DNA of 64,000 nucleotides from Holosporales bacterium (GTDB taxonomy: Bacteria; Pseudomonadota; Alphaproteobacteria; JAJTHO01), in NCBI GenBank assembly GCA_046318675.1, contig JBKCUA010000013.1, positions 109,042-173,041 of the forward strand. The letters are read 5' to 3'. The notes beneath the pieces were generated by a model. It was not told the DNA's origin, searched no databases, and saw nothing but the letters and a program-made list of their open reading frames with translations. Positions 45,291 through 62,323 of this stretch are shown one piece after another. Both the position numbers and the translations under genes were made by a program. How positions within the stretch are numbered: position 1 is the first letter of the stretch; the number at the start of each line of letters is the position of its first letter.

Positions 45291-45452
45291 GAAAAATCCG
45301 AAAAGAAAATTTTAATCATGATGAATTATTTCGTCAATAAGAACAAGCTTATTAATTATAATAAAATTATTTTATTATCTGAATACAAAGTATTTCCCTT
45401 GACATAAACCATCATCTTTCCAACAACAGAGTACTTTCTTTCAGGATTCTTT

Positions 45453-45830
45453 ATGTCAAAGCGTTTATATACAAACTCTCACGAATGGCTCGAAGTAAAA
45501 GATAACATAGCCACTGTAGGTATTACCGACTATGCTCAACACGCCTTAGGCGATGTGGTATACGTTGAAGTCCCAGAATCTGGAAAAACTATTACAGCCG
45601 GATCGCCCGTTGCTGTGGTAGAGTCAGTAAAAGCCGCCAGTGAAGTCTATGCACCGGTGTCCGGCACCGTTACTGAAAGCAACACTGCTATCCAAACTGA
45701 TCCATCTTTAGTCAATCGCGCCGCTAATAGTGATGGTTGGTTTTTTCGTCTAAAAATTAATAACCCGAACGAACTTGAAAAATTACTCACCGAAGATAGC
45801 TATAAATCGTTGATATTAAATTTATCATAA
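45453..45830 (+). CDS. gcvH: glycine-cleavage system H protein (lipoyl carrier)
   Basis: 125 aa; lipoyl-lysine motif VESVKAASEVYAPVSG. Confidence 0.85.
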   Translation: MSKRLYTNSHEWLEVKDNIATVGITDYAQHALGDVVYVEVPESGKTITAGSPVAVVESVKAASEVYAPVSGTVTESNTAIQTDPSLVNRAANSDGWFFRLKINNPNELEKLLTEDSYKSLILNLS

Positions 45831-45836
45831 AAATTT

Positions 45837-46403
45837 TTGGAGGCTGCTGTGCCCACTATAACATTGGCTGATTATTTTACTTTAGCAAGATTTGTTGCGG
45901 TAATACCGTTACTATTATTTTGGTGGCTTCCAGGTGGTGCATGGTTGGCTTTTACTGTTTTCACCATTGCTTGTATTACAGATTTTGCTGATGGAATTAT
46001 TGCCCGTCATCGCAAAGAGGTTTCCCCGTTTGGTACGATGATCGATCCTATTGCAGACAAAATTCTGGTCATCTCCGCCCTGTTAATACTAGCATTGAGT
46101 GAGATTCTAACCATAATAGGAATGGTGGGGTTTTGGATTATCTTATGGCGAGAAATTATTGTATCTGGCCTGCGGGAATACCTCGCTCAGCGCAATCTTA
46201 ATATTCCAGTAACCCCAATAGCAAAATACAAAACCGCCTTACAGATGATTTCTTTGTCCGGATTATTTTTTGAATATGCTTGGCGAGGTGCAAATACTAA
46301 TTCCTGGCTTTGGAGTGAAAGTATTTTATTATTGGCTGCTGCTTTAACTGTATGGACAGGAGTGACTTACGTTAAGGCAACGCTTCAGGCATTAAAAAGC
46401 TAA
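45837..46403 (+). CDS. pgsA: CDP-diacylglycerol--glycerol-3-phosphate 3-phosphatidyltransferase
   Basis: CDP-alcohol phosphatidyltransferase motif DFADGIIAR…G…DPIADK. Confidence 0.8.
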   Translation: MEAAVPTITLADYFTLARFVAVIPLLLFWWLPGGAWLAFTVFTIACITDFADGIIARHRKEVSPFGTMIDPIADKILVISALLILALSEILTIIGMVGFWIILWREIIVSGLREYLAQRNLNIPVTPIAKYKTALQMISLSGLFFEYAWRGANTNSWLWSESILLLAAALTVWTGVTYVKATLQALKS

Positions 46404-47692
46404 TCTCTTTTCCACGCTGCTATAAAAAATCCGTCCGTTTGATGCTCATGGGGTGTTAATTGTAAGGTGTTATCTTTTGCCTGTAGTGGTTTTGAAAAAT
46501 CCACACGACTAAGTGCTTCAACCATTAAAATTGGTGAAAAATCGGTTTTAATTTCATTAAACCAGGCAACCTGATCATCATTTTCTTCCGCCAGCAATGA
46601 ACAGGTCGCATACCATAATTCACCGCCAGGCTTTACTAATTCAGCAGCTTTTTTAAGAATAGATTTTTGCTTTTTTGATAATTCTTCAAGATCAGTTTTT
46701 GTATAGCGAAATCTCGCATCAGGATTACGTCGCCAAGTACCCGTACCTGTACATGGGGCATCAACCAAAACGCGATCGAACTTTCCGCTGTTATTAGCAC
46801 ACCAGCGCTCTTCCAACATCCGCACGGTAGCATTATGTACCCCTGCTTTACGTAAACGACGCTGAGCCTCCTCCAATCGCTTTGGAGCTATATCAAGAGC
46901 GACCAATCTCCCTTTATTCTCCATGTTAGCAGCTAACGCTAAACTCTTCCCCCCTGCGCCGGCACAAAAATCAAGCACCGCCATTCCTGGTTTTGCCCCT
47001 ACCAAAAGAGCGGCAAGTTGAGCTGCTTCATCCTGAATTTCTGCTTGGCCATTATGCAAAACCGATAAACGATCGAAAGAAAAACGCTCACCTATGCGCA
47101 CACCTAATGGTGAGTATGGCGTTGGTTCCGCCGACAAACCTTCTGCTCGAACTTGATCTAATAATGCCGTTCTGTCACCATGCAATGTATTCGCCCGTAA
47201 ATCAACCAGGGCTTGTTCTTGAAGCGCACCAAGCAATCTTGATAGATCGGCTCCATAACGGTTTTGTAAAGAGGCTATCGCCCAGTCAGGGCATTCACCC
47301 TTCACCGCTACTGGCATACTAGACTCAGCTTCAGTATCAAGACAAAGCTGTTCCAGAGTACACAATTCTATATGTGATAATGGTGCAGGTGCATATCGAT
47401 CCCCACTATAAAAGTTCTTTAATAATAATTGATTTTTACCTTCTACAATAAATTGATAAGAAAGAAGCCCCAAGCGCGGTGTCCAGTGTACACCAACGCG
47501 CATCAGTCGCCACGTTAAACGTACCCGATAACGAAACACACCATACACTAAATAAGCAAGATGTTGCCGATCCTTACTTCCCGCAAAACGATGTTCTCTC
47601 CCCCAATGATGTAGTGCCCTATCGACAGGAACACCGCCGTTAGCAGCAGTAAGAACTTCTAAAGCCGCACTGGCCAATGCTTGGGGGGTCAT
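46400..47692 (-). CDS. rsmB: 16S rRNA m5C methyltransferase, RsmB/Sun (NOL1/NOP2) family
   Basis: 430 aa; SAM motif LDFCAGAGGKS and catalytic DAPCTGTGTWRR. Confidence 0.75.
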   Translation of the reverse strand: MTPQALASAALEVLTAANGGVPVDRALHHWGREHRFAGSKDRQHLAYLVYGVFRYRVRLTWRLMRVGVHWTPRLGLLSYQFIVEGKNQLLLKNFYSGDRYAPAPLSHIELCTLEQLCLDTEAESSMPVAVKGECPDWAIASLQNRYGADLSRLLGALQEQALVDLRANTLHGDRTALLDQVRAEGLSAEPTPYSPLGVRIGERFSFDRLSVLHNGQAEIQDEAAQLAALLVGAKPGMAVLDFCAGAGGKSLALAANMENKGRLVALDIAPKRLEEAQRRLRKAGVHNATVRMLEERWCANNSGKFDRVLVDAPCTGTGTWRRNPDARFRYTKTDLEELSKKQKSILKKAAELVKPGGELWYATCSLLAEENDDQVAWFNEIKTDFSPILMVEALSRVDFSKPLQAKDNTLQLTPHEHQTDGFFIAAWKRD

Positions 47693-48789
47693 GATAACAC
47701 AGCTAAAATATCACTATCGTCCACATCCCTACGTTCCACAGCATCTCCAATTGCATTCAACAAAATAAATGTTTTTTTGCCGCCAATCGTCTTCTTATCA
47801 CTTTCCATCGCCATTAGTAATTCATTTTTATTTAAAGTTAGATCAGGTAATAATTCTTTTAATGTCTTAGGATACTTAAGGCCATTAAGATGTTCTTCAA
47901 TGGCTGTTGCTTGATCAGCTACCAACATACCTAATCTGACCGATAACCGTGCTGCCAACCGAATACCGTATGCCACTGCCTCACCATGAAGAAGTATTTT
48001 ACTATCGTATCCAGCAGCAGCTTCCAACGCGTGACCAAATGTATGACCAAAATTGAGCAATGCTCGAATACCAGTTTCTCGTTCATCTTTACTAACTATT
48101 AGAGCTTTTGCACGACAGCTATAAGTAATAGCTTTTTGTAAAGATTCATTATCACCATCAAGTATTTTTTGAGCATATTTTTGGCACCACTCAAAGAAAG
48201 TGGAATCACTAATAAGACCATATTTAAGAATTTCTGCATAACCAGCACGACGTTCGCGTAAAGGAAGCGTCTTTAAAAAATTGATATCAATAATTACCCT
48301 AACTGGTTGGTAAAAAGTCCCTATCAAATTTTTACCAAAATTACTATTGATGGCTGTTTTTCCACCAACAGAACTATCAACTTGAGCCAAAAGGGTTGTG
48401 GGAATTTGTACAAAAGGTATCCCCCGTAAGGTAATACTAGCCACAAAACCGCCTAAATCCCCAACTACACCACCACCTAAAGCAATAAGAATCGTCTTGC
48501 GATCAATGCGCCATGATATTATTTTTTCAAGAACTTTTTTTAGAGTCGTAAAACTTTTTGCTTTTTCTCCGGCAGGGAGAGTGACAAAAAGTACATTCTT
48601 TTTATCAAGGGATTTTTCAATTGTTTTTTTATATAAAGGAGCAACATTTTTATCACTAAGGACTATAACTTTTTTTGTTATATCTAACCATGGTGCAAGG
48701 TCTTTTTCTAAATGCGATAAAATATCGCTACCAATCATGATATCGTATTGATGTTGTTTTGTTTCTATAGAAATAATACCAAGAGTCAT
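47689..48789 (-). CDS. aroB: 3-dehydroquinate synthase
   Basis: 366 aa; GGGVVGDLGGF NAD-binding motif and metal-binding HTFGHALE. Confidence 0.9.
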   Translation of the reverse strand: MTLGIISIETKQHQYDIMIGSDILSHLEKDLAPWLDITKKVIVLSDKNVAPLYKKTIEKSLDKKNVLFVTLPAGEKAKSFTTLKKVLEKIISWRIDRKTILIALGGGVVGDLGGFVASITLRGIPFVQIPTTLLAQVDSSVGGKTAINSNFGKNLIGTFYQPVRVIIDINFLKTLPLRERRAGYAEILKYGLISDSTFFEWCQKYAQKILDGDNESLQKAITYSCRAKALIVSKDERETGIRALLNFGHTFGHALEAAAGYDSKILLHGEAVAYGIRLAARLSVRLGMLVADQATAIEEHLNGLKYPKTLKELLPDLTLNKNELLMAMESDKKTIGGKKTFILLNAIGDAVERRDVDDSDILAVLS

Positions 48790-49087
48790 TCTTCAATATA
48801 ACAGTTTCATTATAAGAAAAAACTTAATAACACTTTCCTTCTATAATTTTTTTGAAAAATAATGGTAGTAGTAAGTAGTACCCATAAAAACGGGGATAAC
48901 TTTTGAAATTTTTTTATTCACAGAATTTTCCACAACAATTTTTAAAAAAGTATTTTTGAAATCAAAAAACTAAAAATAATCCCCAACTGCTAAAACTTTT
49001 TCATAACAATATTTTTTTATAAGGAACCAGTATAAATAAGGCAAAGACAACGGGAATAGTATTGTTGGTTTTTTAAAATCGATAAGT

Positions 49088-49106
49088 TATCCACAAGTTA
49101 TGCACA
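49088..49106 (+). promoter_or_regulatory. tandem DnaA boxes (TTATCCACA perfect, TTATGCACA 1 mismatch)
   Basis: two direct boxes 10 bp apart in a 320-bp AT-rich intergenic region; further near-matches at 48926-48934 (TTTTCCACA) and 48891-48899 (minus strand). Confidence 0.45.
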
Positions 49107-49109
49107 GTT

Positions 49110-49847
49110 TTAAGGATAGTTATAATTAGCTACAAAAACCTTTAGTAGCGACAATACCACAATCGCTAAAATTGCTATTCCTACAATTATTTGTGCCGGG
49201 ACTATAATAAAAAATATTTGTACTTGTGGCATTAGACGCGACACTATCCCAATGGTAATATTAAATAAAATTCCTAAGATAAGCAGTGGTGCTGCTAATT
49301 GAATTCCGATATGAAAGGCATCGGCAAAAACGCGACTGAGATGATTGCTTGCATCAATAATACTGAATGCGGTTCCAATAGGGAAAGAAATGTAACTTTG
49401 TGCTAAAGCTTTAAAAGTATTATGGTGAAGATCAGTAGTAAAAATTGCCGTTATACCAGCCATAGTTAAAAATACGGAAAAGAGGTTTCCTTGCTGACCT
49501 AGGCTTGGGTTTAACAGTGAAGCATTTGACATTCCAGTTTGAAGACCAATGATGGAGCCCGCGACGTCCAAAGTACTAAGTAAAAATTTAGCCATTAATC
49601 CAAAAAAAACGCCAATTATAATTTCCTGACCAATGTAAATAAATGTCTGTAAACCGCTTTCTGGAACAATAGGAATGGGTGTAAGAGGCCAAAGTACTAA
49701 ACTGAACAGTATAGCAAAAGCTAAGCGCACTTTTCCGGGAACAAACATTTGATCTAAACCGGGCATTAAATAAATAAGGGAGCCGACGCGGCAGAAAGTC
49801 ATTAAAAAGGCAAAAGTTTCCTGCGGAAGAAAGGTTAGCAGGGACAT
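49110..49847 (-). CDS. fliR: flagellar biosynthetic protein FliR
   Basis: 245 aa, 6-8 TM; FliR/SctT-like pattern. Confidence 0.75.
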   Translation of the reverse strand: MSLLTFLPQETFAFLMTFCRVGSLIYLMPGLDQMFVPGKVRLAFAILFSLVLWPLTPIPIVPESGLQTFIYIGQEIIIGVFFGLMAKFLLSTLDVAGSIIGLQTGMSNASLLNPSLGQQGNLFSVFLTMAGITAIFTTDLHHNTFKALAQSYISFPIGTAFSIIDASNHLSRVFADAFHIGIQLAAPLLILGILFNITIGIVSRLMPQVQIFFIIVPAQIIVGIAILAIVVLSLLKVFVANYNYP

Positions 49848-49848
49848 C

Positions 49849-50115
49849 TTAACTTCCTTGAATCATGCGCTGAAAAAGTTCCAGGGTGAATCCCTGTAAA
49901 GTGCTAAACATAAAAGGAAGAAATAATGCTGTTGCGGCAAAGACAGCAATGACTTTTGGAACAAAGGACAGCGTACTTTCCTGTATCTGCGTAAGAGCTT
50001 GAAATAAAGATATTATAAGCCCAACAACAAGAGTAATTATAAGAAGTGGTGCCCCAACTTTTAGGGTTGTCCAGAGTGCTTGCTGGGTAATCTCTAAAAC
50101 ATCACCGAAGTTCAT
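49849..50115 (-). CDS. fliQ: flagellar biosynthetic protein FliQ
   Basis: 88 aa from internal Met; GLIISLFQALTQIQESTLSFVPKVIAVF matches the FliQ/SctS signature. Confidence 0.8.
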   Translation of the reverse strand: MNFGDVLEITQQALWTTLKVGAPLLIITLVVGLIISLFQALTQIQESTLSFVPKVIAVFAATALFLPFMFSTLQGFTLELFQRMIQGS

Positions 50116-50175
50116 AATGTTGGATGTAAAAGTCAATGGTTGATAAATTGTAAACAACAAGCAAAATGTGTACCT

Positions 50176-51096
50176 ATGATAATCATTCTTTTACAGCGTA
50201 TAGCACCCTTATATGTTTATGTTTTATTAGGATTTTTTGCTGGTCGTTTTTTAAAAATAGACAGACAACAAATGGCGCGTTTGGTTATTTATCTGATTGC
50301 ACCGTTGATGTTTTTAGGTTCGGTGAGTATTGCCCCATTAGATATCCGTTATTTGTTATTACCCGTTATTACTTTTGTTTTGGCAATATTTATGAGTGGG
50401 TTAATGTTTTTGTTGGTTGGAAGATTTTATCCGGATGCGCGGCGTTATCTTATTGCTTCAATATCTGGTACTGGAAATACGGGATATTTTGGTGTGCCAG
50501 TCTTTTTGACCTTGGCTGGATCAGAGGCATTGGGTGTGTATATGCTGGCAATGTTGGGGATGACTTTTTTTGAGGCTAGTATAGGTTATTACCTTATCGC
50601 GAGGGGTAACTATTCCGTGCGAGATAGCATGAAGCGGTTGTTAATGCTGCCAACACTTTATGCGGTTGGGTTGGGATTATTGGTTAAGGTGAGTGGCGTG
50701 GCTATTCCTACTTGGATGTTGACGGGTCTTGAGCAAGTACGCGGGGCTTATGTGGTTCTTGGCATGATGTTGGTGGGTGTGGGATTATCAATGGTGCGAC
50801 GACTTCAATTTGATATTGCTTTTAATTTCATCTTGCTATTGATGCGATTTGTTTTTTGGCCAATTTTAGTGATGGGAGTATTAGCTTTAGATTATGTATT
50901 TTTAGGATTTTTTGATTCATTAGCACGCACAGCTCTATGGGTGCTGGCTATTGTACCTTTGGCTGCTAATACTGTTGCGTTTGCAAGTGAAATGAATCTT
51001 CATCCGGAAAAAACAGCTACGGCAGTTGCAATTAGTACCGTGTTGGCAATATTTACCGTTCCACTCGTTGCACAGACATTGTTTCTCTTTTTTTGA
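50176..51096 (+). CDS. AEC-family (auxin efflux carrier-like) transporter
   Basis: about 306-aa polytopic membrane protein with two-fold repeat topology typical of the AEC family; ORF begins 50140. Confidence 0.65.
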   Translation: MIIILLQRIAPLYVYVLLGFFAGRFLKIDRQQMARLVIYLIAPLMFLGSVSIAPLDIRYLLLPVITFVLAIFMSGLMFLLVGRFYPDARRYLIASISGTGNTGYFGVPVFLTLAGSEALGVYMLAMLGMTFFEASIGYYLIARGNYSVRDSMKRLLMLPTLYAVGLGLLVKVSGVAIPTWMLTGLEQVRGAYVVLGMMLVGVGLSMVRRLQFDIAFNFILLLMRFVFWPILVMGVLALDYVFLGFFDSLARTALWVLAIVPLAANTVAFASEMNLHPEKTATAVAISTVLAIFTVPLVAQTLFLFF

Positions 51097-51574
51097 TGGG
51101 ATCAGATACTGAAATTTTTTCACCCCAAGATTCTATAAGTTTTTTTTGTAACCCTACGTTATATTTTATGCCACTTTGGTGATGCCAAATAAGTATAGTT
51201 CTAATAATTTGTGGAGTAACGATGATAATACCCCATCCAACGCCCGCAGCACTAAGAATTCCAAGCCACTCTCTTGCATCGTTGAGAATTTCAAATCCAG
51301 CGGCGAGACTCCACCCTAAAGGAAGAACCCTAATAAGGGTTGGAGCAATGCCAGCAGCATTCATTATAATGACAGATAAGGCTATACGTTTATTGGGATT
51401 TTTATCCCATGACCATGCTACTAGTCCAGGAAGCATACCTATTGTACAAAGAAGAACTCCGGATAAAGAAATTAAAGACATACAAAGAACAATAAGTCCG
51501 TAAAGAAATTTCACTTTTCCAGTCCAAGATTTTTTTAAATTTGGCGCTCTATTGGGGTTATTTTTTATTTTCAT
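51053..51574 (-). CDS. hypothetical 4-TM membrane protein (T4SS-cluster associated)
   Basis: 173 aa, four predicted TM helices; no recognised family; last gene in the minus-strand T4SS transcript direction. Confidence 0.4.
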   Translation of the reverse strand: MKIKNNPNRAPNLKKSWTGKVKFLYGLIVLCMSLISLSGVLLCTIGMLPGLVAWSWDKNPNKRIALSVIIMNAAGIAPTLIRVLPLGWSLAAGFEILNDAREWLGILSAAGVGWGIIIVTPQIIRTILIWHHQSGIKYNVGLQKKLIESWGEKISVSDPIKKRETMSVQRVER

Positions 51575-51578
51575 GAAA

Positions 51579-53621
51579 TCACATCCTTAATAGGAAAAAA
51601 CAAATAGCAGAAAATAGAGCAATAATTGGAGAAACAACGGCGGTTTTCTTAGCCACAAGGGAATTTATATCTTGTAAGGCATACCGATGAAGGTTTATTT
51701 TTTTATCGATTCTCAAGTATTCGTTGCGTGCATTTTTGAATTCAATGGAATCTTTTTGTCGTTCTTGAGGGCTGTCAATAATATCTAAAATTTTTAAGAA
51801 AGAGCCACTTTGTGCAGCTTGGTCAAGATTTTTAGTAATCTGTGCGCGACGTGGTTCACTATTAAAATGATCAAGATTCTGTTGCAAGGTTTTACTAAAC
51901 CATGTTGTTATTTTTGGAAAAGATTTATTTCCGTTTTTTTGATTTATTGAATGGAAAATACGAAGTAATGCAATATGTGGTATCCAAGGTTGGCTCTTAT
52001 CATTTAATTGACGAAAATATTCTTCTTTTAAAAACTTACAGCGGCTGGCAATAAATGCAGTAATATGTCTATCAATAATAGGATTTTTATAATTTAGATC
52101 AGTATATTTATTTAGCATTGCCTCAAGAGCTGGAAGAATATCTATAGATTCAAGGACTATAGTGTCCTCAAGAATAGAACTTAAACAAGCAGCTTGCGGA
52201 TTAAGCTCATAAAAACATCGCTCAAATCCATAACCAAGTCCTTGGTTCATTATAACAGTTTTGAGAAGTTCTAAAATTTTATCAAGGCGATTTTGTTCTT
52301 CGGAAATAGAACTTTGAGCACGTAACCAAGAAGATGCAAGACCATGTCGGATAATGTCTGTACAAAATTGTCGTTTCTGGTTATCAAAAAGTCCGGCAAG
52401 AAATAGACCCCCAAGCCCATTAATATCAATGGCAACACCTTGATAAAACAAGGGTGCTTCAGGGCATAGAGCAATCAGGGCTTTCGCACTGGTAACGCTT
52501 GGGGGTTGGGTTGCTCGTGTGGCAACGGCAAATATTTCATGCAATGAATTGGCTACATCTTCTGCTTCAAGACTTCGTCGAAGCCATATGTTCATTTTAT
52601 TATCTTGTAGAATTTTTAATGCACTATCCTTGGTTTTTCCTAGTGCATAAACAAGTGATGGAATATTGATATAGTTTATATTATTAAATATTAATGCCCG
52701 ACCAGCTTTTTTCGGAAATGTGGGCACTTTTGGCGATATGCTTTGTCCACCTAACCATTGGGATACTTGATCGATTGTCCATCGGTTTTCTGGATTATCA
52801 TGTAAGGTGCCTTTAAGAAAATCCATCATTTCTTTAGAAAATCGTTTATCGCCGATAAAAGTAGCTAAAGTACCGTTCGTTGTTTTTTTAAAAAGAAGAT
52901 TATCCAGCGTAAGATTTTGTGCGGGATTTTCTCCTTCCAAAAGATGCAAACTAAGTATTCCAAGATTATAAATATCTTCTTGAAATCCGTTGGTACTTTT
53001 TTTATTGGCAGGATCAATAAGCATCATTTCAAGGGGTTCAACGGTAAACGGTATTCTCCAACCAAGATGACCCATGAAGCATTCACCTAAAACAATCGAT
53101 GTTTTTGTATGATCAGAATAAAATATATTACTTGGAGATAAAAATCTGTAAGATAATGAGTTTTTTTGTAATTCGGCAAGTGTATTAATAATCGGACGAA
53201 TAAAAATTTCACGAACATTGAGTTCTGTCCACGGGGTTATTTTTTGTTTGCCGCCCTCAGGAAAGACAGAAGATCCAGGTAAGGGCGCAACAGCGAATAA
53301 AAGACTACCAAAACCAGCACCCAGTGTTTTTTTTTCATAGGCTTCAGGACAAAGAATCGTTGCGTTTGACGTTTTTTTTAGTAGTTCGAGCATATCATAG
53401 CGCGGTGACATCATTTTATCGGCCATGAAAGCAACCATTAAACGTTCTTCATTTAGTAAATCTGTTGCTTTAAAAGCAAAAACCTGACCAAGCGAAAGAT
53501 CATGCATACATTCATGAATAATATCGCCCATATGGACAATGTAACGCTCGCTCAGAATAATTTGGCTTTTTTTACGGCCATCGGTGCCGTCCTGAGGCTG
53601 CGGTTCTTTAATTAAAGTCAC
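51579..53621 (-). CDS. membrane-anchored protein with degenerate Hanks-type protein-kinase-like (pseudokinase) domain
   Basis: 680 aa; Gly-rich-loop-like LGAGFGSLLFAV, degenerate catalytic loop YRFLSPSNIF (cf. HRDLKPSNIL; catalytic Asp and Lys absent), subdomain IX-like DIYNLGILSLHLLEGENP, subdomain XI-like LHDNPENRWTIDQV; C-terminal TM helix. Confidence 0.5.
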   Translation of the reverse strand: MTLIKEPQPQDGTDGRKKSQIILSERYIVHMGDIIHECMHDLSLGQVFAFKATDLLNEERLMVAFMADKMMSPRYDMLELLKKTSNATILCPEAYEKKTLGAGFGSLLFAVAPLPGSSVFPEGGKQKITPWTELNVREIFIRPIINTLAELQKNSLSYRFLSPSNIFYSDHTKTSIVLGECFMGHLGWRIPFTVEPLEMMLIDPANKKSTNGFQEDIYNLGILSLHLLEGENPAQNLTLDNLLFKKTTNGTLATFIGDKRFSKEMMDFLKGTLHDNPENRWTIDQVSQWLGGQSISPKVPTFPKKAGRALIFNNINYINIPSLVYALGKTKDSALKILQDNKMNIWLRRSLEAEDVANSLHEIFAVATRATQPPSVTSAKALIALCPEAPLFYQGVAIDINGLGGLFLAGLFDNQKRQFCTDIIRHGLASSWLRAQSSISEEQNRLDKILELLKTVIMNQGLGYGFERCFYELNPQAACLSSILEDTIVLESIDILPALEAMLNKYTDLNYKNPIIDRHITAFIASRCKFLKEEYFRQLNDKSQPWIPHIALLRIFHSINQKNGNKSFPKITTWFSKTLQQNLDHFNSEPRRAQITKNLDQAAQSGSFLKILDIIDSPQERQKDSIEFKNARNEYLRIDKKINLHRYALQDINSLVAKKTAVVSPIIALFSAICFFLLRM

Positions 53622-53706
53622 GCCTATATTTACCTTGTTGGAATAAAATGGAATCCAAAGATAAAGATAGTATAGAAGTACTAATGTTTCGTAATCGCTT
53701 CGATTT

Positions 53707-55755
53707 TTAAGATGAAGCTAGTTCTAAACTAGCTTTCATGGCTTTTTTAAGCCTTTCTTGCTCTTGTTCGGCAAGGTACTCTGTTTTTCGCCGTTCCATC
53801 ATAAAAGCAGGCATAGGGGGAGCGGCTTTATATTTACCGCCTTTGCTTGGATCCACAAGGGTTTTGAGGACGGGATGTTTGTAATATGCTGGGGTATCAC
53901 ACAAAATAGGCCGAGAAAGATACCCTTGAAAAAGGACATAATGCTTTCCTTTGGGAATGGTCATAAAATCTTCGGGGCGGAGCAAGGGTTGTCCCTGCAG
54001 GCTACGCTGAACGTTGGCGGCAAACGGGTTTGTCTCTCGGCTTACCCCCATGGTGCGGGAACGAGAGGCCGTTTCCACGGTGCGTTGACCCACCATTTCT
54101 GAAAAGCGTTTCGCAGTAGTCTCATTGTTCTGGGCAAGAACAACCTTGGCGGCAGTGGTGGAAATAACCGTTTCTACCTCGTCCTTGCCGTACACGGCGG
54201 TAATCTGCCCTAAATCTTGGCCAATCATCAAAAAGCTTACTTTTTGACCCCGACCAACAGCGGGTCCATCAATCAATGCGCGCAGTTTGGGCATTTGTGG
54301 AAATTCATCAAGAACGAACAATGCAGCAAAAGGACCAACCTTGCGACCATCAGCAGTGGATGACTTTGGTGGGTGGGCAACTAGCCAGGCGGAGAGAGCT
54401 TCGACCAGCAGCCCAGTGATAACGCCCAGAGCTTTGGCATCTTGCTGGGTTACGCAGACATAGATGCTCATGGGTTTATATTCCCCAGTTACCGGATCGC
54501 GCATCCCTCGTACGTCCATGAAGGAAAAATCGCTTTGACTGGTACGATCGCGGACAGCTTTATTTTTAAACACAACAAGACCCCCGTCCATGGTGGACAT
54601 GATAGAGCCACGTTCTTTATCGGGGGTATTGGCCAAGGCTGTAAGTTCTAAGATGGCACGATTACTATAATTACCCGCACGGCATTCTTTTACGGCATCT
54701 GTGAGCATATCCCGCATAGGATCGGCACTCATGGCTGCCATTGGATTGGTTTTGCGAAGCTGTTCAACTTTTTCTTGGGCGGAAATTTGTGCTTCTGTCA
54801 TCCAATCCAGTAGCATAGGAATGCTTGGTTCTTTGCCTTGCCAATTTAGAGGTATATTATTCCAGTTCCCTGCTTCTATTTTTGAGCATAAATAGTGAAT
54901 GAATCCGGCCAGCACGGCTCGTCCTCGTTTTGTCCAGTGGGGATCGGCACTGCCCTTTGGTTCTTCGATAAGAATATTGACCAAGCGATCAACGTACAAA
55001 TCGCGCTGTGCCCCTGGGGGAGGCATAGAAGACGGAGAAAGAGCATTCCATCGTGGATAGAAAATCCCCTTTTCTGGCTGATCAGATGCTGCCCATTCTA
55101 GCTTGAGGCAAAAGCTGTGTTGGCTGCGATAGCCACTTGTAATATCAAAAAGTTCCGGCTTAACGTCATTAATAATCATGGACACGTTATTACAGGTAAG
55201 AATAGTAGGCACGACAATAGCGACGGTTTTACCAGTTCCAGGGGGGGCAACGCACAGGACAGATAAAGTTTCGGGAAGTTTAAGGAATTTACGTTGATAT
55301 TCGCCTAGAACGACAATCCAACCTTTAAGAAGCTGCATTTTGTCAACGTCACGTTTGGTTGCCATTCGGGCATTACCAAAAGTTGTTACCAAAAAGGTGT
55401 AAGGATTGCTTAGCATAAACCCGACAAAAACCACCAAGGTACCGCCCAATGCCGTAACAATCTCAACGGGTAGAAAAATAAACCGCCAATCGTAGGGGTT
55501 TCCGTGGCGAATAGTGGTAATCCAGTTGAGATGCCATTGCCACCAAGCAATAGGATTTTTGGCCATACCAAAATATTGTTCTACTGCCATGACGACTTTT
55601 TGTGAGACACCAAACTTAATAAATGTATATGTTGCTGTAACTAAAGGCACAAAGAAAAAAAAGGCGATAACAGACCCGATAAGCACCTGAAAAAGATATA
55701 GGGTTGCCTGCTTTTGTTCGGCGTAATCTTGGCGGTTAAAGGGGCTTAGAACCAT
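53707..55755 (-). CDS. virD4: type IV secretion coupling protein VirD4/TraG
   Basis: 682 aa; N-terminal TM helices, Walker A PPGTGKTVAIVVPT, TraG/VirD4 family blocks. Confidence 0.9.
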   Translation of the reverse strand: MVLSPFNRQDYAEQKQATLYLFQVLIGSVIAFFFFVPLVTATYTFIKFGVSQKVVMAVEQYFGMAKNPIAWWQWHLNWITTIRHGNPYDWRFIFLPVEIVTALGGTLVVFVGFMLSNPYTFLVTTFGNARMATKRDVDKMQLLKGWIVVLGEYQRKFLKLPETLSVLCVAPPGTGKTVAIVVPTILTCNNVSMIINDVKPELFDITSGYRSQHSFCLKLEWAASDQPEKGIFYPRWNALSPSSMPPPGAQRDLYVDRLVNILIEEPKGSADPHWTKRGRAVLAGFIHYLCSKIEAGNWNNIPLNWQGKEPSIPMLLDWMTEAQISAQEKVEQLRKTNPMAAMSADPMRDMLTDAVKECRAGNYSNRAILELTALANTPDKERGSIMSTMDGGLVVFKNKAVRDRTSQSDFSFMDVRGMRDPVTGEYKPMSIYVCVTQQDAKALGVITGLLVEALSAWLVAHPPKSSTADGRKVGPFAALFVLDEFPQMPKLRALIDGPAVGRGQKVSFLMIGQDLGQITAVYGKDEVETVISTTAAKVVLAQNNETTAKRFSEMVGQRTVETASRSRTMGVSRETNPFAANVQRSLQGQPLLRPEDFMTIPKGKHYVLFQGYLSRPILCDTPAYYKHPVLKTLVDPSKGGKYKAAPPMPAFMMERRKTEYLAEQEQERLKKAMKASLELASS

Positions 55756-56842
55756 CTTTTTTCGCCCTTATTTTTGTCATGCTAGCAGGTTTTTGTACCA
55801 GCGTCACCCCTGATGCTTCATGGGCAACTTTTTTGACAAGATTTGGCGCATCCACAGCGGTGATGATGCGTTTTCCTGAAGATCTATCGATTTGAACAAT
55901 TCGGCCAAAGCTGCGGGCAAGAATTTCAACGGCGGCCTCGGCATCGAGTTCTGGATCAGTCTGGGTGAGGTTTTGCCAGAACGCCCGCAATGCCATTTCT
56001 GGTGAATCGGCGTGAATGGTTGCCATAAAGTTGGAATGACCAGTAGTCATTAAACGGTATATACTTTTAGCATTGGTAACCGAAACCTCTCCGCAGACAA
56101 TAACATCAGGCGTCATTCGGACAACGGTATCAAGGATATGAGTATAGCCAATCTTGTTGGCACCGGCGGTACGCGAAACAACAAAATGAACACGGTTAGG
56201 GTGAGGAACAACAACTTCTCGTGTGTCTTCCACGGTCACAATGCGTTTGTCACGCGGAATAAAATCAATAAGGGCGTTTAAAAATGTTGTTTTTCCTGTA
56301 GATGTTGCGCCGGATATTAATACAGCTTCGCCATGTTGTACGGCGGATACCAAATCTTCATAAGGAAAATCGCTGTAACGCTTTTTTTCAACGCCTCGAT
56401 GCACTAAGTCTTCTTTTGTTTTTTGTTGAGGGCGCAAATCAAAATCATCGAGGCTGAATTTTTTATTCAGATCAAAACGTCTTATACATATAGCTACCCC
56501 ATTGGTATCACCCATTTCATAGCGCACATTGGTGCCAAGCACTGCCTGAAAACGATGTCCTTGTGGTAAGGTTGCGGCAAGAATAGGAAGATCATTGAGA
56601 TCAAAAGACTGTTCTGTAATATTGGCGAGCATTCTACAAAGGGCGTGCAAACTGCGCAGATTTAATTCTGTTGCCGCAACAGGTTCCCACCCAGGCTTTC
56701 CATGTTTTTTTATCATGATTTCGCTGGGACGATTGATGGCGATTTCTTCTACTTCTCTGCTGGAATAATATTTTTCAATGGGCTGAAGTGCCCTGAGGAG
56801 AAGGGGATTATCAAGAGCGGTGCTATTGTTAAAAGTACTCAT
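55736..56842 (-). CDS. virB11: type IV secretion ATPase VirB11
   Basis: 368 aa; Walker A GATSTGKTTFLNAL and conserved His box of the VirB11/GspE-like family. Confidence 0.9.
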   Translation of the reverse strand: MSTFNNSTALDNPLLLRALQPIEKYYSSREVEEIAINRPSEIMIKKHGKPGWEPVAATELNLRSLHALCRMLANITEQSFDLNDLPILAATLPQGHRFQAVLGTNVRYEMGDTNGVAICIRRFDLNKKFSLDDFDLRPQQKTKEDLVHRGVEKKRYSDFPYEDLVSAVQHGEAVLISGATSTGKTTFLNALIDFIPRDKRIVTVEDTREVVVPHPNRVHFVVSRTAGANKIGYTHILDTVVRMTPDVIVCGEVSVTNAKSIYRLMTTGHSNFMATIHADSPEMALRAFWQNLTQTDPELDAEAAVEILARSFGRIVQIDRSSGKRIITAVDAPNLVKKVAHEASGVTLVQKPASMTKIRAKKDGSKPL

Positions 56843-56846
56843 AAGG

Positions 56847-58556
56847 CTAAGGTTTGTTTATAGTTGGATTAACATTGGGGCGGCCTGGACCATAATTATT
56901 TGCGGCGCTGCCGACTTGATTGGTGCCGCTGTTATCAACACCAAAAGCACCAGCAGGGGAGCCGCCTGTATCTAGGCCAGGCTGGCCAAGTGCACCCGCT
57001 TTCGATACTTGGCCTATAATTTCAATCAGGCGTTCAGAACCTCCAGCAATATCACCGCGTTGCAGGGCGCGAATAAGTGCTTGAGCCTGACTCACAAGAT
57101 TTCCGGCTTCACCCGCAACAGTAAGAAGCTGCGGGGTTTTGAATTCAATATCCTGTGTGGGAAGGATAACAAACCGCGTTCCGGCGGGAACAGTGATAAT
57201 GGGCTGAAGGGCAACGGTATTCTGGATAAATTCTTGGGATTTTTGTACTGCGTCAGCACTGAGCTGGCGTACCGCTTGATTTTCTCGTGTGGTTGTCTCG
57301 GAAGTGGATGTGCCAAGAACGCCCAATGCGCCTGTGGTGGTAGTCGTGGTGACTTGTGAGGGTGATGCGGCATAATTAGCCGCAACTCCAATGGCAGAAA
57401 CCAAAAGTGGTATTCCAAAGCGATCAAAAAGACGGTTATCAACATCGCCTATTAAGCCAACGCGCCCCATGGGATCAGCAGAAGGAGAGCGAACATTTAT
57501 ACCAACACCGTCAGGACGAATGATGCGATTCCAGACAACGGAAAGCCGTGACGTTCCCGCCTTGTTAGACCCGTCGTATTCACCAATGGCGCGACTGCCC
57601 GCGGGAATAAGTATGTTACGACCTTCAGCAGAATAAACGTGGTTTTCTATAATGGCAATAACACGTCCTTTGGGGATTTGTGAGCTGATGGTGTTTTCCA
57701 GAACGGCTGGAATATAGCGATCGCTGGTAATCATCCGCGTTCTGTCAATCGGGTATGTTGCCACTGTTTTACCATAACCAATATCTTTGTAGTCTGAGTC
57801 AGACATAATCCATTGATTGCGTTGTTGACCAGTAAAGGAAGGAGTGCTGCTGAGGCGACCTTGGCGACGTTCCATTTGCATACGCATGGCCTCAATTTGT
57901 TGCTGTGTTGGGCCTTCGGGTTTTTGTTGAGCAATTTCGGGGGGAATATAGGCTTCGGCACCGGAACCGGAAAGCTGTATAATAAGGCTGTCGTTCTGAC
58001 CGTTATGGGTGATGACAATACTGGCGGAAATTTTCTGATTATTAACTGGTCTGAACGTAACCTCAAGACGGCAAGCTTTTCTAGAAGGATCAAGCACAAC
58101 CCCAGATAGACAATTTCCGCCGAGGATAAATTCTGTTACGGTCTGCGGGTTAAGGGTGATATTTTTGATGGTGAGTGGCTCATCACCCTCATTTTCAAGT
58201 GTAATGTCACGAGTTTGATCGTCCCCAATGGCGTTACCACTGCCAAAATCAATATTGCCGGTAAGATTTGTTAATAAAGCCGGCTTTTTCGGAGCGTCTT
58301 GTTGTTGACTGGCGATATTAAGCAGATCCTGCACCGGGGTGGCGTCAGCTTTTTGCTCCTGTTGTAGTTGTTGGGGAGCTTGTTGTTCGCTTTTGCCACA
58401 GGCAGATAAGCCCAATACAGCTAAGAATACAATGGCTATGACTAGAAAGTTGTGAAATCCAAAAAGGGGAGCATCCTTGCTCATCATCTGTTTGCCTCGC
58501 TTTCGATACAAACAGTATGGCAAAAATTTAAAATATGTCAATAAAATTTGTGACAT
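56847..58556 (-). CDS. virB10: type IV secretion protein VirB10/TrbI
   Basis: 569 aa; N-terminal TM anchor, Q/P-rich linker, C-terminal TrbI domain (RLSVVWNRIIRPDG…GLIGDVDNRLF). Confidence 0.8.
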   Translation of the reverse strand: MSQILLTYFKFLPYCLYRKRGKQMMSKDAPLFGFHNFLVIAIVFLAVLGLSACGKSEQQAPQQLQQEQKADATPVQDLLNIASQQQDAPKKPALLTNLTGNIDFGSGNAIGDDQTRDITLENEGDEPLTIKNITLNPQTVTEFILGGNCLSGVVLDPSRKACRLEVTFRPVNNQKISASIVITHNGQNDSLIIQLSGSGAEAYIPPEIAQQKPEGPTQQQIEAMRMQMERRQGRLSSTPSFTGQQRNQWIMSDSDYKDIGYGKTVATYPIDRTRMITSDRYIPAVLENTISSQIPKGRVIAIIENHVYSAEGRNILIPAGSRAIGEYDGSNKAGTSRLSVVWNRIIRPDGVGINVRSPSADPMGRVGLIGDVDNRLFDRFGIPLLVSAIGVAANYAASPSQVTTTTTTGALGVLGTSTSETTTRENQAVRQLSADAVQKSQEFIQNTVALQPIITVPAGTRFVILPTQDIEFKTPQLLTVAGEAGNLVSQAQALIRALQRGDIAGGSERLIEIIGQVSKAGALGQPGLDTGGSPAGAFGVDNSGTNQVGSAANNYGPGRPNVNPTINKP

Positions 58557-58565
58557 AAATCACTT

Positions 58566-59924
58566 TTATGGCTGGGGTGTGGTTGAGTGTTTTTTGGGTG
58601 CAACTTTTTTCTTTGATTTTTCAGGTTTAATATCTGTTTTTGCAGGTTGTTCGAGTGGTGATTCTTGAACAACCTGGGTTGTCGGGGCAATAGAAACACC
58701 ACTGTCATCTTTTATCAATGGGGTAGAGGGAAATGGCCGTGGTGGTTTAACGTCGGTGTGTCCGATAACATTTGGAGATTCAAGGATTAAACCTAGATTG
58801 CGATCTTGGCCAATAGTCACGCCAGGTAAAAACACGGAGCGCCCACCTTCAATAACAAATGACTGGGTGGTTGAAATCAAAGGTAAAGTATCAGGCAGAC
58901 GGCAGGGTGCACTTGGCCGTTCTAGTGTTATTGCATTCATGGTTAAATTGACTCCTAGAATACCCTCTTGATTGCGTGTGGCTAATTGTAATGTTGTTGC
59001 CCCCATCGGGTTATCCAGCATTGGGCAACCTTCTGTGGCAGTATTAACGCCGGCAGAGGCTTGTATTTCCCCGCCAAGTGGAACAATAATAAGGCCATTT
59101 TCAATAATACTGTTGCCTAAACGCTGTGCTGTCAGGCGCCGAACAACATCATCGGCGGTAAATTTTCCTAACCAGGCGTCGTTTTGTTCTACAGCACCAG
59201 GTACAAGATCAGTCGGTGAGGCTGTGCTCGCATAGCTAATAAGCCGTGTACGGAAAGCCACCGTAGGTAGACGGCGTTGTTCTTGTAAGAATGATTCTAC
59301 GGCAGCTAAGCTAGATCGACTGGCGGTGAAATGTAACAGGCGTTCTTTGCTGTCAATGTTGACATTAACAGCTCCGGCGGCAGTGATGGCTTCAACAAAA
59401 GAGCGATAGGGATTGCGGGACGCGTTGTATAAGGCGGCATTACTTTTTGGATTGTCTCTTTGATAATCACTAAAGAAGCCCAAGGGAGGAAGGGGTACGG
59501 TGTAGCTGAGCGTTTGTTTTAGATAGAGGGTTTGCCCCTGGCGCAATACGAAAAAATTATTATCTTGGCCTAAAGTATTTAATGCTTCGTCAAGGGTTCC
59601 TGATAAATTAATATTTTGTAGGCCTCGATCGGAAATCCCCGTATCAATATTTAGCTGTAAATCACTGTCCGCAATTAATCCGAGCAATACATCGGATAGT
59701 AATGCTTCTGGTAAAACAATGGATTTGATAGGTCGATTGGGGAGAGGCTCACCTAATTGATCTTGATAAGCCCAGAAAAACGGCCGATTCGTGGCACTGT
59801 CTATAGCAACAGGTATTACAGGCTTAACAATAGAGGGTTCTGGCGGCGTGATTGTTGCGCATCCTGTCATGAATAAATATAAAGCTGTCACTATAATGTT
59901 TTGATTTTTTAATTTTTTTGACAT
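58566..59924 (-). CDS. T4SS-associated lipoprotein with secretin-N0/STN-like domain
   Basis: 452 aa; lipobox LFMTGC; N0/STN-like segment INLSGTLDEALNTLGQDNNFFVLRQGQTLYL; Lys/Pro-rich C-terminal tail. Confidence 0.45.
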   Translation of the reverse strand: MSKKLKNQNIIVTALYLFMTGCATITPPEPSIVKPVIPVAIDSATNRPFFWAYQDQLGEPLPNRPIKSIVLPEALLSDVLLGLIADSDLQLNIDTGISDRGLQNINLSGTLDEALNTLGQDNNFFVLRQGQTLYLKQTLSYTVPLPPLGFFSDYQRDNPKSNAALYNASRNPYRSFVEAITAAGAVNVNIDSKERLLHFTASRSSLAAVESFLQEQRRLPTVAFRTRLISYASTASPTDLVPGAVEQNDAWLGKFTADDVVRRLTAQRLGNSIIENGLIIVPLGGEIQASAGVNTATEGCPMLDNPMGATTLQLATRNQEGILGVNLTMNAITLERPSAPCRLPDTLPLISTTQSFVIEGGRSVFLPGVTIGQDRNLGLILESPNVIGHTDVKPPRPFPSTPLIKDDSGVSIAPTTQVVQESPLEQPAKTDIKPEKSKKKVAPKKHSTTPQP

Positions 59925-59951: not shown

Positions 59952-61592
59952 TTATTTGATCCATCCTTGCTGAATAGCAGTAGGAGATGGTGGGGGTGAA
60001 TCGTAGGTGCGTGCGCCGCTGAAGGGCAGTACAGGCATAGATTGGATGGGCGGACGTTGGCCGAAACCAGTACCAGCTGTTGCGGGTACTGTGGTAACAG
60101 AGTTTTGATTATAAATGCTTTGTGGCCTAGTATAGCCCGGAGGTAGCATATGAGTGGTAGATGGCATATTGCTATATAATTGCGGGCCGCCAACGCTGGC
60201 CGGGCCAGCGATACTGATATTATTGGCTACGCCGCCGTAAGCTTGACTGTAACTGCCGGGTTGCGGGGCGGGCTGAAGTGGCACAACGGGGGCGTTTTGG
60301 TAGTTGGCGATCCCTTGTGCTGCAATAGGCCCAGCAACGGCGGGGATGGAACTGCCGCCAATGGCGCCGCCATTGCCATTGGCGAAGTTGGGCTGGCGAT
60401 TAACCCCGCCAATAGGAGCACCGCTGTATTGTGCGCCAAGCCCGGCATCGGCAACACCATCAGGGCGATTGTTGAAGAATAGGGAAGGATCATTGCTGGG
60501 TACTGGCGGTGGCATACTGCGATTGCCTTCGAAGGTTCTTGGCGCGCCGGCCTGGTAAACACAGACGACGCGATCGCCATTGCGTAAGGTGAAATTGCCA
60601 ATGGCTTCGGCAACAATGATATTGCCATTTGGCCCCATGGTTCGGGTGTTGACCATACTGTCTACACCATCAACCACGCGGAAGACGACTGGACGGCGGA
60701 CGGTATCGGCTTTTTCACCGTAATCAAAATACGTCCATAGGCCATCGGTGAACGCTCGAAGGGGGGCAATCTCTACGTCGGCTGGGGTGGGGGCGTAAAT
60801 TTTTAAATCAAAGCGCAGATTGGTGGGATCAAAAGCAATGGAGCGAACAAAATCCGGTTTGGTGGGAGCAGTGCTTCCGGTGAAGGCAGTACCGCTGGGT
60901 GTGCCGGTGAGGCCACTCATGGGTTGATTCACAAAAGGCTGTCCCGTCAAGGCATTGATAGGAGTTCCGGAGCCGGGTGCCATGGGAACGGCACCAACGC
61001 TTCCCGATGCGCCGGAATTGGCGGGGTTGGCTAGAACAAATACCGTGAAATCGGTGATATTTTTGGAGTTCCATCCCTCTGAACGCAAATAAAAGTTATA
61101 TATATTGCCCGATGCGCCAATAACGGTCATGTTGGTATCGGCTCCAGGATGGGTGGGGCGGATAGCAATCATATAATCTCTACTTAGTTTTTGGGCTTCG
61201 AAAACGGTTCTGTCCCCCAGAATAACCTCTGAAATGCTCTCCCATTGCGGTAATTCAATGGTAGTTTGCATAAATTCCCGCGTTCTGATCGCCATGACGT
61301 AGTCAGGCCGCCAGACGTAGCGAACGATGCCGGGGGAAATTTGGCCACTACTGGGGGCTGGGTTGTTCCAGCTTTGTTGAATTGCTCCCAGCGGTGTTAA
61401 ATCCCGAATCATTTGGGGATAGTTGCCTTGGGACTGTTGTTGCATATCTTGTTGTGTTTGTTGAATAAAGTCAGGCTGCCCTGTGTCTGTTGGTGCCACA
61501 TTCGGATTGCCTAATGGTGGTGCAAGACCAATCTGCGCCCATGCGGGAACAGCTAAAAATAGGCTAACTATTAAGGGTAGAAACCCCTTCAT
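59952..61592 (-). CDS. virB9: type IV secretion protein VirB9 (CagX/TrbG-like) with long low-complexity C-terminal extension
   Basis: 546 aa; signal peptide; VirB9 blocks (YVWRPDY…, RPTHPGADTNMTVIGASGNIYNFYLRS); about 240-aa G/P/A/Q-rich tail. Confidence 0.8.
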   Translation of the reverse strand: MKGFLPLIVSLFLAVPAWAQIGLAPPLGNPNVAPTDTGQPDFIQQTQQDMQQQSQGNYPQMIRDLTPLGAIQQSWNNPAPSSGQISPGIVRYVWRPDYVMAIRTREFMQTTIELPQWESISEVILGDRTVFEAQKLSRDYMIAIRPTHPGADTNMTVIGASGNIYNFYLRSEGWNSKNITDFTVFVLANPANSGASGSVGAVPMAPGSGTPINALTGQPFVNQPMSGLTGTPSGTAFTGSTAPTKPDFVRSIAFDPTNLRFDLKIYAPTPADVEIAPLRAFTDGLWTYFDYGEKADTVRRPVVFRVVDGVDSMVNTRTMGPNGNIIVAEAIGNFTLRNGDRVVCVYQAGAPRTFEGNRSMPPPVPSNDPSLFFNNRPDGVADAGLGAQYSGAPIGGVNRQPNFANGNGGAIGGSSIPAVAGPIAAQGIANYQNAPVVPLQPAPQPGSYSQAYGGVANNISIAGPASVGGPQLYSNMPSTTHMLPPGYTRPQSIYNQNSVTTVPATAGTGFGQRPPIQSMPVLPFSGARTYDSPPPSPTAIQQGWIK

Positions 61593-62323
61593 CGTGCTTC
61601 CATCCGTTGATAAGTAAGCACTGTAAACCCAAGAGGGTTAAGATATTGTTCACTTAAAGACACAGCCTGTTGCCTAAAGCCAAAAGTGACGCGGGAAATC
61701 CACGATTTTCGCCCTTTGACAGTGCCGCGTTTATCAATGACTGTTATCTCAAAGTACACTTCGATTACATTGGAGCTTATCCGTTGTGTTCTAAATATCT
61801 CAACATTCTGTCCAAGATTTGCATCACGAATTTTGGGATAGACATCAGCCATTTCTTTAAGAAAGGATTCAAATTCGCGTTGTGGTACGCGGGGTCTGAT
61901 GTACTGCGTCCAGCGCCGTTGTTGTTCTTGTTCATCAAAAACAAACTCCTCACGAATTTTGACGAATTCGTTGGCCATGCTTTCTATAAGAAGTTGGAAA
62001 CCACTGGCGTCCTTGCTGATGGGCTCAATGCGTACAATCTGTTGATTTTTATCGCTGAAGGTGAGTAAAAATGGTTCTACCCGCTTTAGGGGGGTGAGGA
62101 CGCTTATGGTAAAGACCAGTACAACATTGAGCAACATACTCACGGTAAAGGCCAGCGCAAACACGCGGGTGGTGAATAGCTGGCGTTTGCCTTCTAAGGC
62201 CGGAACGCTGACATCGGCGGGGTAGGCACCTATTTTATCTTCCCCTGCATAGGGGGCAGGGCGGAGCGATTCGCCAGTATTGACGCCACCAAAAGCTGCT
62301 TTGAGTTTATCGCCCAGTCCCAT
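61589..62323 (-). CDS. virB8: type IV secretion protein VirB8
   Basis: 244 aa bitopic: cytoplasmic N-terminus, one TM, periplasmic NTF2-like domain with VirB8-like pattern; position between VirB7-like and VirB9. Confidence 0.7.
   Translation of the reverse strand: MGLGDKLKAAFGGVNTGESLRPAPYAGEDKIGAYPADVSVPALEGKRQLFTTRVFALAFTVSMLLNVVLVFTISVLTPLKRVEPFLLTFSDKNQQIVRIEPISKDASGFQLLIESMANEFVKIREEFVFDEQEQQRRWTQYIRPRVPQREFESFLKEMADVYPKIRDANLGQNVEIFRTQRISSNVIEVYFEITVIDKRGTVKGRKSWISRVTFGFRQQAVSLSEQYLNPLGFTVLTYQRMEAR

Follow-up and report, generated by a model that had tools for sequence, protein, structure and literature searches.

A predicted tail-anchored pseudokinase family of Alphaproteobacteria with a member behind virD4 in a Holosporales bacterium

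Introduction

Does a kinase-like gene that lies directly behind virD4 in an endosymbiont belong to the type IV secretion system (T4SS) encoded beside it? The question was raised by an open reading frame (ORF) at positions 51579-53621 of a window from a Holosporales bacterium (the window being the whole stretch of DNA analyzed, 64,000 nucleotides, positions 109,042 to 173,041 of contig JBKCUA010000013.1, assembly GCA_046318675.1). The original prediction had taken the gene product for a membrane-anchored pseudokinase-like protein and for a candidate T4SS effector, regulator, or accessory. The first part of this description was borne out by profile alignment and structure prediction, and the second part was not: the protein is probably a non-catalytic scaffold or sensor that is tail-anchored in the inner membrane and works with a small four-helix membrane partner.

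Results

Kinase fold of the ORF product

According to the ORF list and the translation, the ORF was uninterrupted over 680 codons on the minus strand, and in the alignment its GTG start lined up with the ATG start codon of a 79%-identical homolog; a plus-strand reading of 51579-53621 was rejected, its translation being riddled with stops. The ORF and the regions of its product were as follows:

51579..53621, minus strand: tail-anchored pseudokinase ORF, 680 aa, GTG start (ORF list and translation)
52746..53564, minus strand: kinase-fold domain, residues ~20-292, catalytically degenerate (hhalign, Foldseek, and residue frequencies among 198 family representatives)
51771..52745, minus strand: family-specific C-terminal domain, residues ~293-617 (~325 aa), mostly helical with two small beta-hairpins
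51582..51770, minus strand: long terminal helix, residues 618-680, ending in the sole hydrophobic segment (DSSP, Kyte-Doolittle, and conservation)

Sequence evidence alone for the kinase fold was marginal: the Pfam model PF00069 (Pkinase) scored the window protein at 29.3 bits, under its gathering score of 31.7, with coverage of the C-lobe only, and scored other family members at 11-27 bits; a PDB sequence search matched STE20-like kinases at an E value of 3e-4. Profile alignment and structure were decisive. A 25-sequence family profile was aligned to the PknB kinase domain with an hhalign probability of 98.2%, and an AlphaFold2 model was built on a 25-sequence family alignment with a mean predicted local distance difference test score (pLDDT) of 86.7 and a predicted template modeling score (pTM) of 0.80. 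Foldseek with this model matched 1,445 PDB chains at E<=1e-3; protein kinases accounted for 50 of the 50 matches listed, among them PknB, ULK1, MAP4K4, CDPK1, and CaMKI, and the target-normalized template modeling (TM) scores were 0.65-0.79 for isolated kinase domains.

In the alignment with PknB, the catalytic loop HRDVKPANIM of PknB was paired with YRFLSPSNIF of the window protein, which had been rightly picked out as a catalytic-loop remnant: Y158-R159-F160 stood in place of HRD, S162 replaced the catalytic-loop Lys, and N165 was retained. The DFG position was occupied by V177-L178-G179, the conserved Ala of the VAIK motif was A64, and the beta3 Lys column held M66; the predicted replacement of the catalytic Asp and Lys (M66, F160, S162, and V177) was thereby found in this protein and, as given below, throughout the family. 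The segments DIYNLGILS and DNPENRWT were also correctly assigned to subdomains IX and XI, respectively, as judged from the family and PknB alignments. One assignment failed: LGAGFG (residues 100-105), proposed as a Gly-rich loop and rejected here, came behind helix alphaC, with strand 94-99 before it and strand 106-113 after it, and was aligned with PknB ETPAGPLPY, which placed it in the beta4-beta5 turn (model secondary structure and PknB alignment). The P-loop position, located between strands 27-34 and 46-54, read IIHECMHDLSLG without GxGxxG, and its family consensus was PLPxxxx.

The residue frequencies were then counted across the 198 representatives: (i) the beta3 Lys column held Val (n=84), Ile (n=60), Leu (n=30), or Met (n=12); (ii) the HRD Asp column held Ala (n=113), Gly (n=34), Asn (n=15), Ser (n=11), or Phe (n=9), and the HRD and catalytic-loop Lys columns together read H-R-A/G/N and R in the family; and (iii) the DFG Asp column held Val, Met, Ile, Gln, or Leu. 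Structural kinase residues were kept, namely, the HRD His in 181 representatives, N165 in 195, the DFG Gly in 196, the APE Glu in 183, D216 in 197, and R280 in 195; R74 was kept in 194, Arg at position 162 in 167, and an acidic residue after the DFG Gly in 189. Because the loss of catalytic residues was family-wide and the structural residues were kept, these proteins constitute an ancient pseudokinase family and not a recently decayed kinase. On the alignments and the model, the window protein is classified as a pseudokinase, with a kinase fold in which the beta3 Lys, HRD Asp, and DFG Asp have all been lost family-wide, and it may be unable to bind nucleotide.

A single variant was seen in alignment A1, in which representative P0015 had the catalytic loop H-A-D-I-R-P-T-N with an Asp at the HRD Asp column (window residue 160); this Asp is a lone reversion or variant, the family otherwise lacking Asp at that column.

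C-terminal domain and tail anchor

The C-terminal domain, when modeled alone, reached a pLDDT of 87.1. Its near-invariant residues were W346, G463, G465, E467, R468, Y471, C479, S481, D517, H519, R592, and G606, with conservation of 100% for D517, 99% for C479, 99% for Y471, 98% for S481, 96% for R468, and 90% for H519. Together with D624 of the terminal helix, this domain held the most strongly conserved residues of the whole protein, with the motifs GxGxERxLYELNPxxPCxSP and DRHIAAF, and the window protein kept all of W346, G463, G465, E467, R468, Y471, C479, S481, D517, H519, and D624. Judged by this pattern of conservation, the invariant residues look like a putative binding or active site. 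The domain had no Pfam or NCBIfam model when the window protein and typical family members were used as queries, it had no PDB sequence relative and no Foldseek PDB match at E<=1e-3, and a domain-only search returned the same architecture and no other. An internal duplication of two hairpin-plus-helices units was rejected, the hhalign probabilities of the sub-profiles being 0.3-3%.

DSSP assigned one helix to residues 618-679 of the model, in which D624 and A631 were near-invariant. The Kyte-Doolittle scan detected only one hydrophobic segment in the protein, residues 659-678 (window 51588-51647), which ended 2 residues before the C terminus and agreed with the single transmembrane helix originally proposed to close the protein. 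This segment is a predicted tail-anchor transmembrane helix, and nearly the whole protein would face the cytoplasm. A charged or Glu-rich C-terminal T4SS signal was looked for, and a hydrophobic anchor was found in its place: the last 20 residues formed a hydrophobic helix with one Lys/Arg and no Asp/Glu, the protein ended in FFLLRM, and the hydrophobic tail was conserved in the aligned homologs, those of free-living bacteria included.

Small membrane partner gene

A second gene followed the pseudokinase gene closely:

51053..51574, minus strand: partner gene, 173-aa polytopic membrane protein with ~4 hydrophobic helices (ortholog alignment and hydropathy)

The partner started 4 nt past the pseudokinase stop codon in the window, and in 62 of 84 loci an ortholog of ~165 aa came directly after the pseudokinase gene in the same orientation, at a median distance of ~50 bp. 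The invariant residues of the partner orthologs were P49, V52, D57, N72, G75, P78, W103, A110, G113, P121, W150, and G151, and the partner belonged to no Pfam, NCBIfam, or PADLOC family. Comparison of the window with locus L002, that of the 79%-identical relative, gave ratios of nonsynonymous to synonymous substitution rates (dN/dS) of 0.107 for the pseudokinase gene, 0.20 for the partner, and 0.022 for virD4, these being approximate at dS values of ~0.9-1.3. By these ratios, purifying selection acts on both the pseudokinase and its partner in the endosymbiont.

As the ORFs were called, the partner (minus strand) and a convergent Mem_trans gene (plus strand, 50140-51096) shared 44 nt at their 3′ ends (51053-51096). 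In one clade without the partner directly downstream, the L018-L036 group (e.g., L019 2538-4475 and L024 12033-13961), an acetyl-CoA-synthetase-like gene followed the pseudokinase gene.

Size and distribution of the family

The first homology search returned 37 relatives of full length, between 649 and 711 aa, along with two incomplete sequences of ~420 aa; the closest relatives were one 99% identical and one 79% identical, the latter from a Holosporales metagenome-assembled genome (MAG), and the remainder were alphaproteobacterial with 22-31% identity. A profile search of 1.84 billion representatives returned at least 1,311 clusters (50% identity) at E<=1e-30. The 150 clusters listed were 614-772 aa in length, most of them 650-730 aa, and matched the profile from end to end except for a few N-terminally short sequences; P0001, the representative 99% identical to the window protein, matched profile positions 8-669 at an E value of 4.4e-227.

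When one genome per species was scanned with a sequence pattern, 509 genomes were found to encode a relative. The best 80 of these 509 matches, on which the survey of T4SS genes below drew, included Skermanella, Arenibaculum, Oleisolibacter, Inquilinus, Lacibacterium, Phaeospirillum, Magnetospirillum, and Micavibrio as well as many Rhodospirillaceae and other Alphaproteobacteria MAGs. A scan of 72,556 plasmids, a large number of which are conjugative, found a homolog in five Azospirillum replicons of ~1 Mb only, where it was annotated as "serine/threonine protein kinase"; the source names of other family members were "hypothetical protein" or "serine/threonine protein kinase". The family is thus widespread in Rhodospirillales-type Alphaproteobacteria, most of which are free-living, and is retained in Holosporales. 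Membership in a defense system was rejected, since the defense-system scan gave merely weak generic kinase-domain matches to MkoA and MAD6, far under family level.

Genetic surroundings of the pseudokinase gene

The pseudokinase gene was preceded by a set of T4SS genes:

61589-62323, minus strand: VirB8
59952-61592, minus strand: VirB9/CagX
58566-59924, minus strand: 452-aa ORF between virB9 and virB10
56847-58556, minus strand: VirB10/TrbI
55736-56842, minus strand: VirB11
53707-55755, minus strand: VirD4 (PF02534, E 1.3e-59)
53622..53706, minus strand: spacer of 85 nt from the virD4 stop to the pseudokinase start (sequence)

The operon order was virB8-virB9-orf452-virB10-virB11-virD4, followed by the pseudokinase gene on the same strand. 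That the 680-aa protein is encoded directly downstream of virD4 was therefore correct, in that a real ORF lay 85 nt after a PF02534-positive VirD4 gene; the strand had not been stated, and with this omission and the wrong P-loop assignment the original observation was partly confirmed overall. A promoter and terminator scan of the minus strand of the spacer detected no terminator-like or sigma70-like site.

Locus L002 and the free-living relatives were used for comparison of gene order. The recurrent order in the free-living relatives was serA-hisZ-purA, the pseudokinase gene, the gene of the ~165-aa membrane protein, rpoH (convergent), and rluD. T4SS genes were surveyed by tblastn with the window T4SS proteins in 87 homologous loci, up to 10 kb on each side: (i) VirD4 and VirB10 were found within 10 kb in one of the 87 loci, namely, L002; (ii) VirB9 and VirB8 were found in none, L002 being not assessable for these two, as its contig ends within virB10; and (iii) three lone VirB11-like ATPase matches were found, each without other VirB genes. 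In the one Azospirillum plasmid region inspected (A. ramasamyi), there were no T4SS genes near the homolog. The conservation downstream of virD4 that a T4SS role had been expected to bring was accordingly not seen: homologs almost never co-occurred with T4SS genes, and in the only locus with a nearby VirD4 gene the two were not adjacent.

In L002, the upstream neighbor of the pseudokinase gene was ssb on the opposite strand, and virB10-virB11-virD4 lay 6.5 kb downstream on the other strand. Gene-order comparison of the window (~45450-53700) with L002 (5924-14400) showed that a block of ~8.5 kb was inverted; this block, composed of the pseudokinase gene, the partner, Mem_trans, fliQ, fliR, aroB, rsmB, pgsA, and gcvH, abutted the virD4 end of the operon, such that gcvH adjoined virD4 in L002 and the pseudokinase gene adjoined it in the window. 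The GC content at third codon positions (GC3) was 0.22-0.34 in the genes from aroB to the pseudokinase gene, against 0.35-0.50 for virB/D4, and it changed from 0.433 (virD4) to 0.245 (pseudokinase) at their boundary; this composition supports a junction of unrelated blocks. The spacer 53622-53706 is the meeting point of two compositionally different blocks and an inversion end point relative to the sister genome.

Several further features were observed around the locus. A DDE transposase gene was located ~5 kb from the inverted block in L002. Across the 64-kb window, GC content was 0.35-0.60 in 2-kb bins, and GC3 per gene ranged from 0.22 (aroB) to 0.63 (an aconitase-family gene); this heterogeneity could come from mosaic ancestry or horizontal transfer of the T4SS operon and, less likely, from an assembly chimera. 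The genes fliQ and fliR (Bac_export_3 and Bac_export_1; 49110-50160, minus strand) stood isolated between the Mem_trans gene and aroB, with the same arrangement in L002 and no other flagellar or type III secretion export genes beside them in the window; a flagellar-export link of the pseudokinase was rejected, since this neighborhood was found outside the window only in L002 and was absent from the other inspected neighborhoods. The 452-aa ORF inside the T4SS operon had no Pfam, NCBIfam, or PADLOC match; as a candidate lineage-specific component of the T4SS, it is preferable to the pseudokinase. VirB10/TrbI carried an Ig-like stretch at residues ~101-199, N-terminal to its TrbI domain, with a HYDIN/ASH/DUF1573-type match: the HYDIN-type model reached E 1e-5 and 26.1 bits against a model cutoff of 25.5 bits, and the ASH, Cep192, and DUF1573 models remained below their own.

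Discussion

Comparison with known kinase-fold proteins

The window protein was compared with PknB-type Hanks Ser/Thr kinases (PF00069), EssB/YukC, the mycobacterial MviN/MurJ, and LegK-type effectors. It shared with PknB the bilobal kinase fold (Foldseek TM scores of 0.64-0.72 against PknB kinase domains), and the profile alignment matched it to PknB at the catalytic loop, the Gly of DFG, the Glu of APE, the Asp of subdomain IX, and the Arg of subdomain XI; its family differed in lacking GxGxxG, the beta3 Lys, HRD Asp, and DFG Asp and in remaining below the Pfam gathering threshold, and the window protein differed in having its transmembrane segment at the extreme C terminus and no extracytoplasmic sensor domain such as PASTA.

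EssB/YukC of firmicute type VII secretion systems has a dead kinase fold and a single membrane helix, and EssB is a structural or scaffolding subunit that acts with small membrane proteins; EssB displays a central transmembrane helix and an extracellular C-terminal domain. The likeness lay in a bacterial, catalytically dead kinase fold held at the cytoplasmic membrane by one helix, whereas the transmembrane helix of the window protein was terminal with the whole protein predicted to be cytoplasmic, there was no detectable sequence relationship, and no type VII secretion genes were found near the pseudokinase gene in the window. The mycobacterial MviN/MurJ has a degenerate Hanks domain on the cytoplasmic face of the membrane, which serves as a docking module and is fused to a 14-helix flippase. 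It resembled the window protein in the tethering of such a domain to the cytoplasmic side of the membrane, while the window pseudokinase was fused to a novel helical domain and a tail helix and had its polytopic protein encoded by a separate small gene. The parallels with EssB/YukC and with the pseudokinase domain of MviN lead us to infer a scaffold or sensor role, in which the protein may interact physically with its partner.

LegK-type T4SS effectors of Legionella are lineage-restricted, are soluble or targeted to host membranes, and have C-terminal translocation signals. The window protein was like them in being a kinase-like fold from an intracellular bacterium that possesses a T4SS, but its family was present in >500 mostly free-living species with T4SS genes almost never near, and it carried a bacterial tail anchor; Legionella kinase-like effectors have been surveyed (PMC9758233). 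Because the family is large, resides in free-living Alphaproteobacteria, and almost never has T4SS genes nearby, a role as a secretion-system effector is very unlikely for the pseudokinase.

Proposed function and alternatives

We take the gene to be the Holosporales version of an ancient module known from Rhodospirillales-type Alphaproteobacteria, in which the gene of a ~680-aa protein is followed by that of a membrane protein of ~165 aa with four helices. Before it diversified, the family would have lost its P-loop together with the beta3 Lys and the Asp residues of HRD and DFG, leaving a dead kinase domain that may function as a protein-binding or conformational-switch module; the ~325-aa C-terminal domain with its polar cluster E467/R468/Y471/C479/S481/D517/H519 may be a ligand- or partner-binding module. 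The large protein and its membrane partner would act together at the cytoplasmic side of the inner membrane as a non-catalytic scaffold or sensor with a housekeeping role, one probably kept under purifying selection even in a reduced endosymbiont. The position behind virD4 would be the product of a local inversion in the Holosporales lineage and would have no bearing on function.

Some points weigh against this proposal. The pseudokinase gene is co-directional with virD4 at a distance of 85 nt, and no terminator-like site was found between them, so co-transcription with the T4SS operon is possible in this bacterium. N165, R/S162, and E/D180 in the cleft and the invariant Cys, His, and Asp of the C-terminal domain leave room for unconventional catalysis. 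The pairing with the partner is not obligatory, because ~12-20 loci of one clade had no recognizable partner directly downstream. Full-text literature searching found no publication on any family member, and the scaffold or sensor role is argued from analogy.

An unconventional enzyme, with either a kinase-like cleft that uses relocated residues (N165, R162, E/D180, and R74) or an enzyme or metal site in the C-terminal domain on C479/D517/H519/E467/R468/Y471, would be in keeping with the retention of N165 (195/198), R74 (194/198), the post-DFG acidic residue (189/198), and R162 (167/198) and with the conservation of D517, C479, Y471, S481, R468, and H519; even so, the P-loop, beta3 Lys, HRD Asp, and DFG Asp were jointly missing family-wide, a pattern characteristic of pseudokinases without nucleotide binding, the C-terminal domain was unlike any known enzyme fold in the structure and sequence searches, and we regard such an enzyme as unlikely. 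The gene order of the free-living relatives could point to another role, that of a sigma-32-linked sensor module that would detect envelope or proteostasis stress and act on rpoH, anti-sigma-like or by sequestration. In 25 of 84 loci the pair was followed by a convergent rpoH gene, usually accompanied by rluD, but this convergent orientation means that the genes form no operon, rpoH was not nearby in the window and in many other loci, no similarity to known anti-sigma domains was found, and the synteny may be an ancestral housekeeping order, purA and hisZ being linked equally often. A stress sensor of this kind is quite improbable.

The T4SS itself could have recruited the protein in this lineage, with the gene co-transcribed with virB/virD4 and its product serving as a T4SS substrate, a coupling-protein adaptor, or an inner-membrane accessory. 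The shared strand, the 85-nt gap, and the lack of a terminator-like hairpin on the minus strand of the spacer would fit such recruitment, as would the sister genome L002, where the block and the virD4 end of the operon are still no more than 6.5 kb apart. Set against these are the following: (i) adjacency was already lost at 79% identity, where the block is inverted and ssb adjoins; (ii) VirD4 was missing from 86 of 87 loci, and VirB10, VirB9, and VirB8 from all but L002; (iii) the C terminus was a hydrophobic anchor with one Lys/Arg in the last 20 residues, conserved in free-living species; (iv) GC3 dropped from 0.43 to 0.245 at the junction; and (v) there was no sign of neofunctionalization, because the sequence invariants of the family were retained. 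We hold T4SS recruitment to be highly improbable, and it is conceivable in the Holosporales lineage solely as a possible local add-on. The non-catalytic, tail-anchored scaffold or sensor with its membrane partner is accordingly preferred.

A broader proposal, made tentatively and doubtful on balance, is that the pseudokinase and its four-helix partner constitute an order-wide inner-membrane signaling or assembly module, whose C-terminal domain would represent a novel fold containing a Cys/His/Asp-centered ligand, metal, or catalytic site, and which would be vital enough to outlast genome reduction in Holosporales. More speculatively, the module in the endosymbiont may have come under the transcription of the T4SS operon, which would couple a housekeeping function to secretion.

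Significance

For effector discovery, the outcome is negative: the proximity to virD4 would be a rearrangement artifact, and the protein should stay off effector lists. The by-product is a large, uniformly built pseudokinase family, two-thirds of whose length is without a Pfam or NCBIfam model and whose C-terminal domain is without a solved structural relative; genome annotation routinely mislabels its members as "serine/threonine protein kinase" despite the missing catalytic residues. Bacterial pseudokinases are, to our knowledge, few and poorly understood. The effector lead was an ordinary one, and the undescribed family is moderately interesting. It is present in tractable organisms (Azospirillum and Magnetospirillum), so its function is directly testable there.

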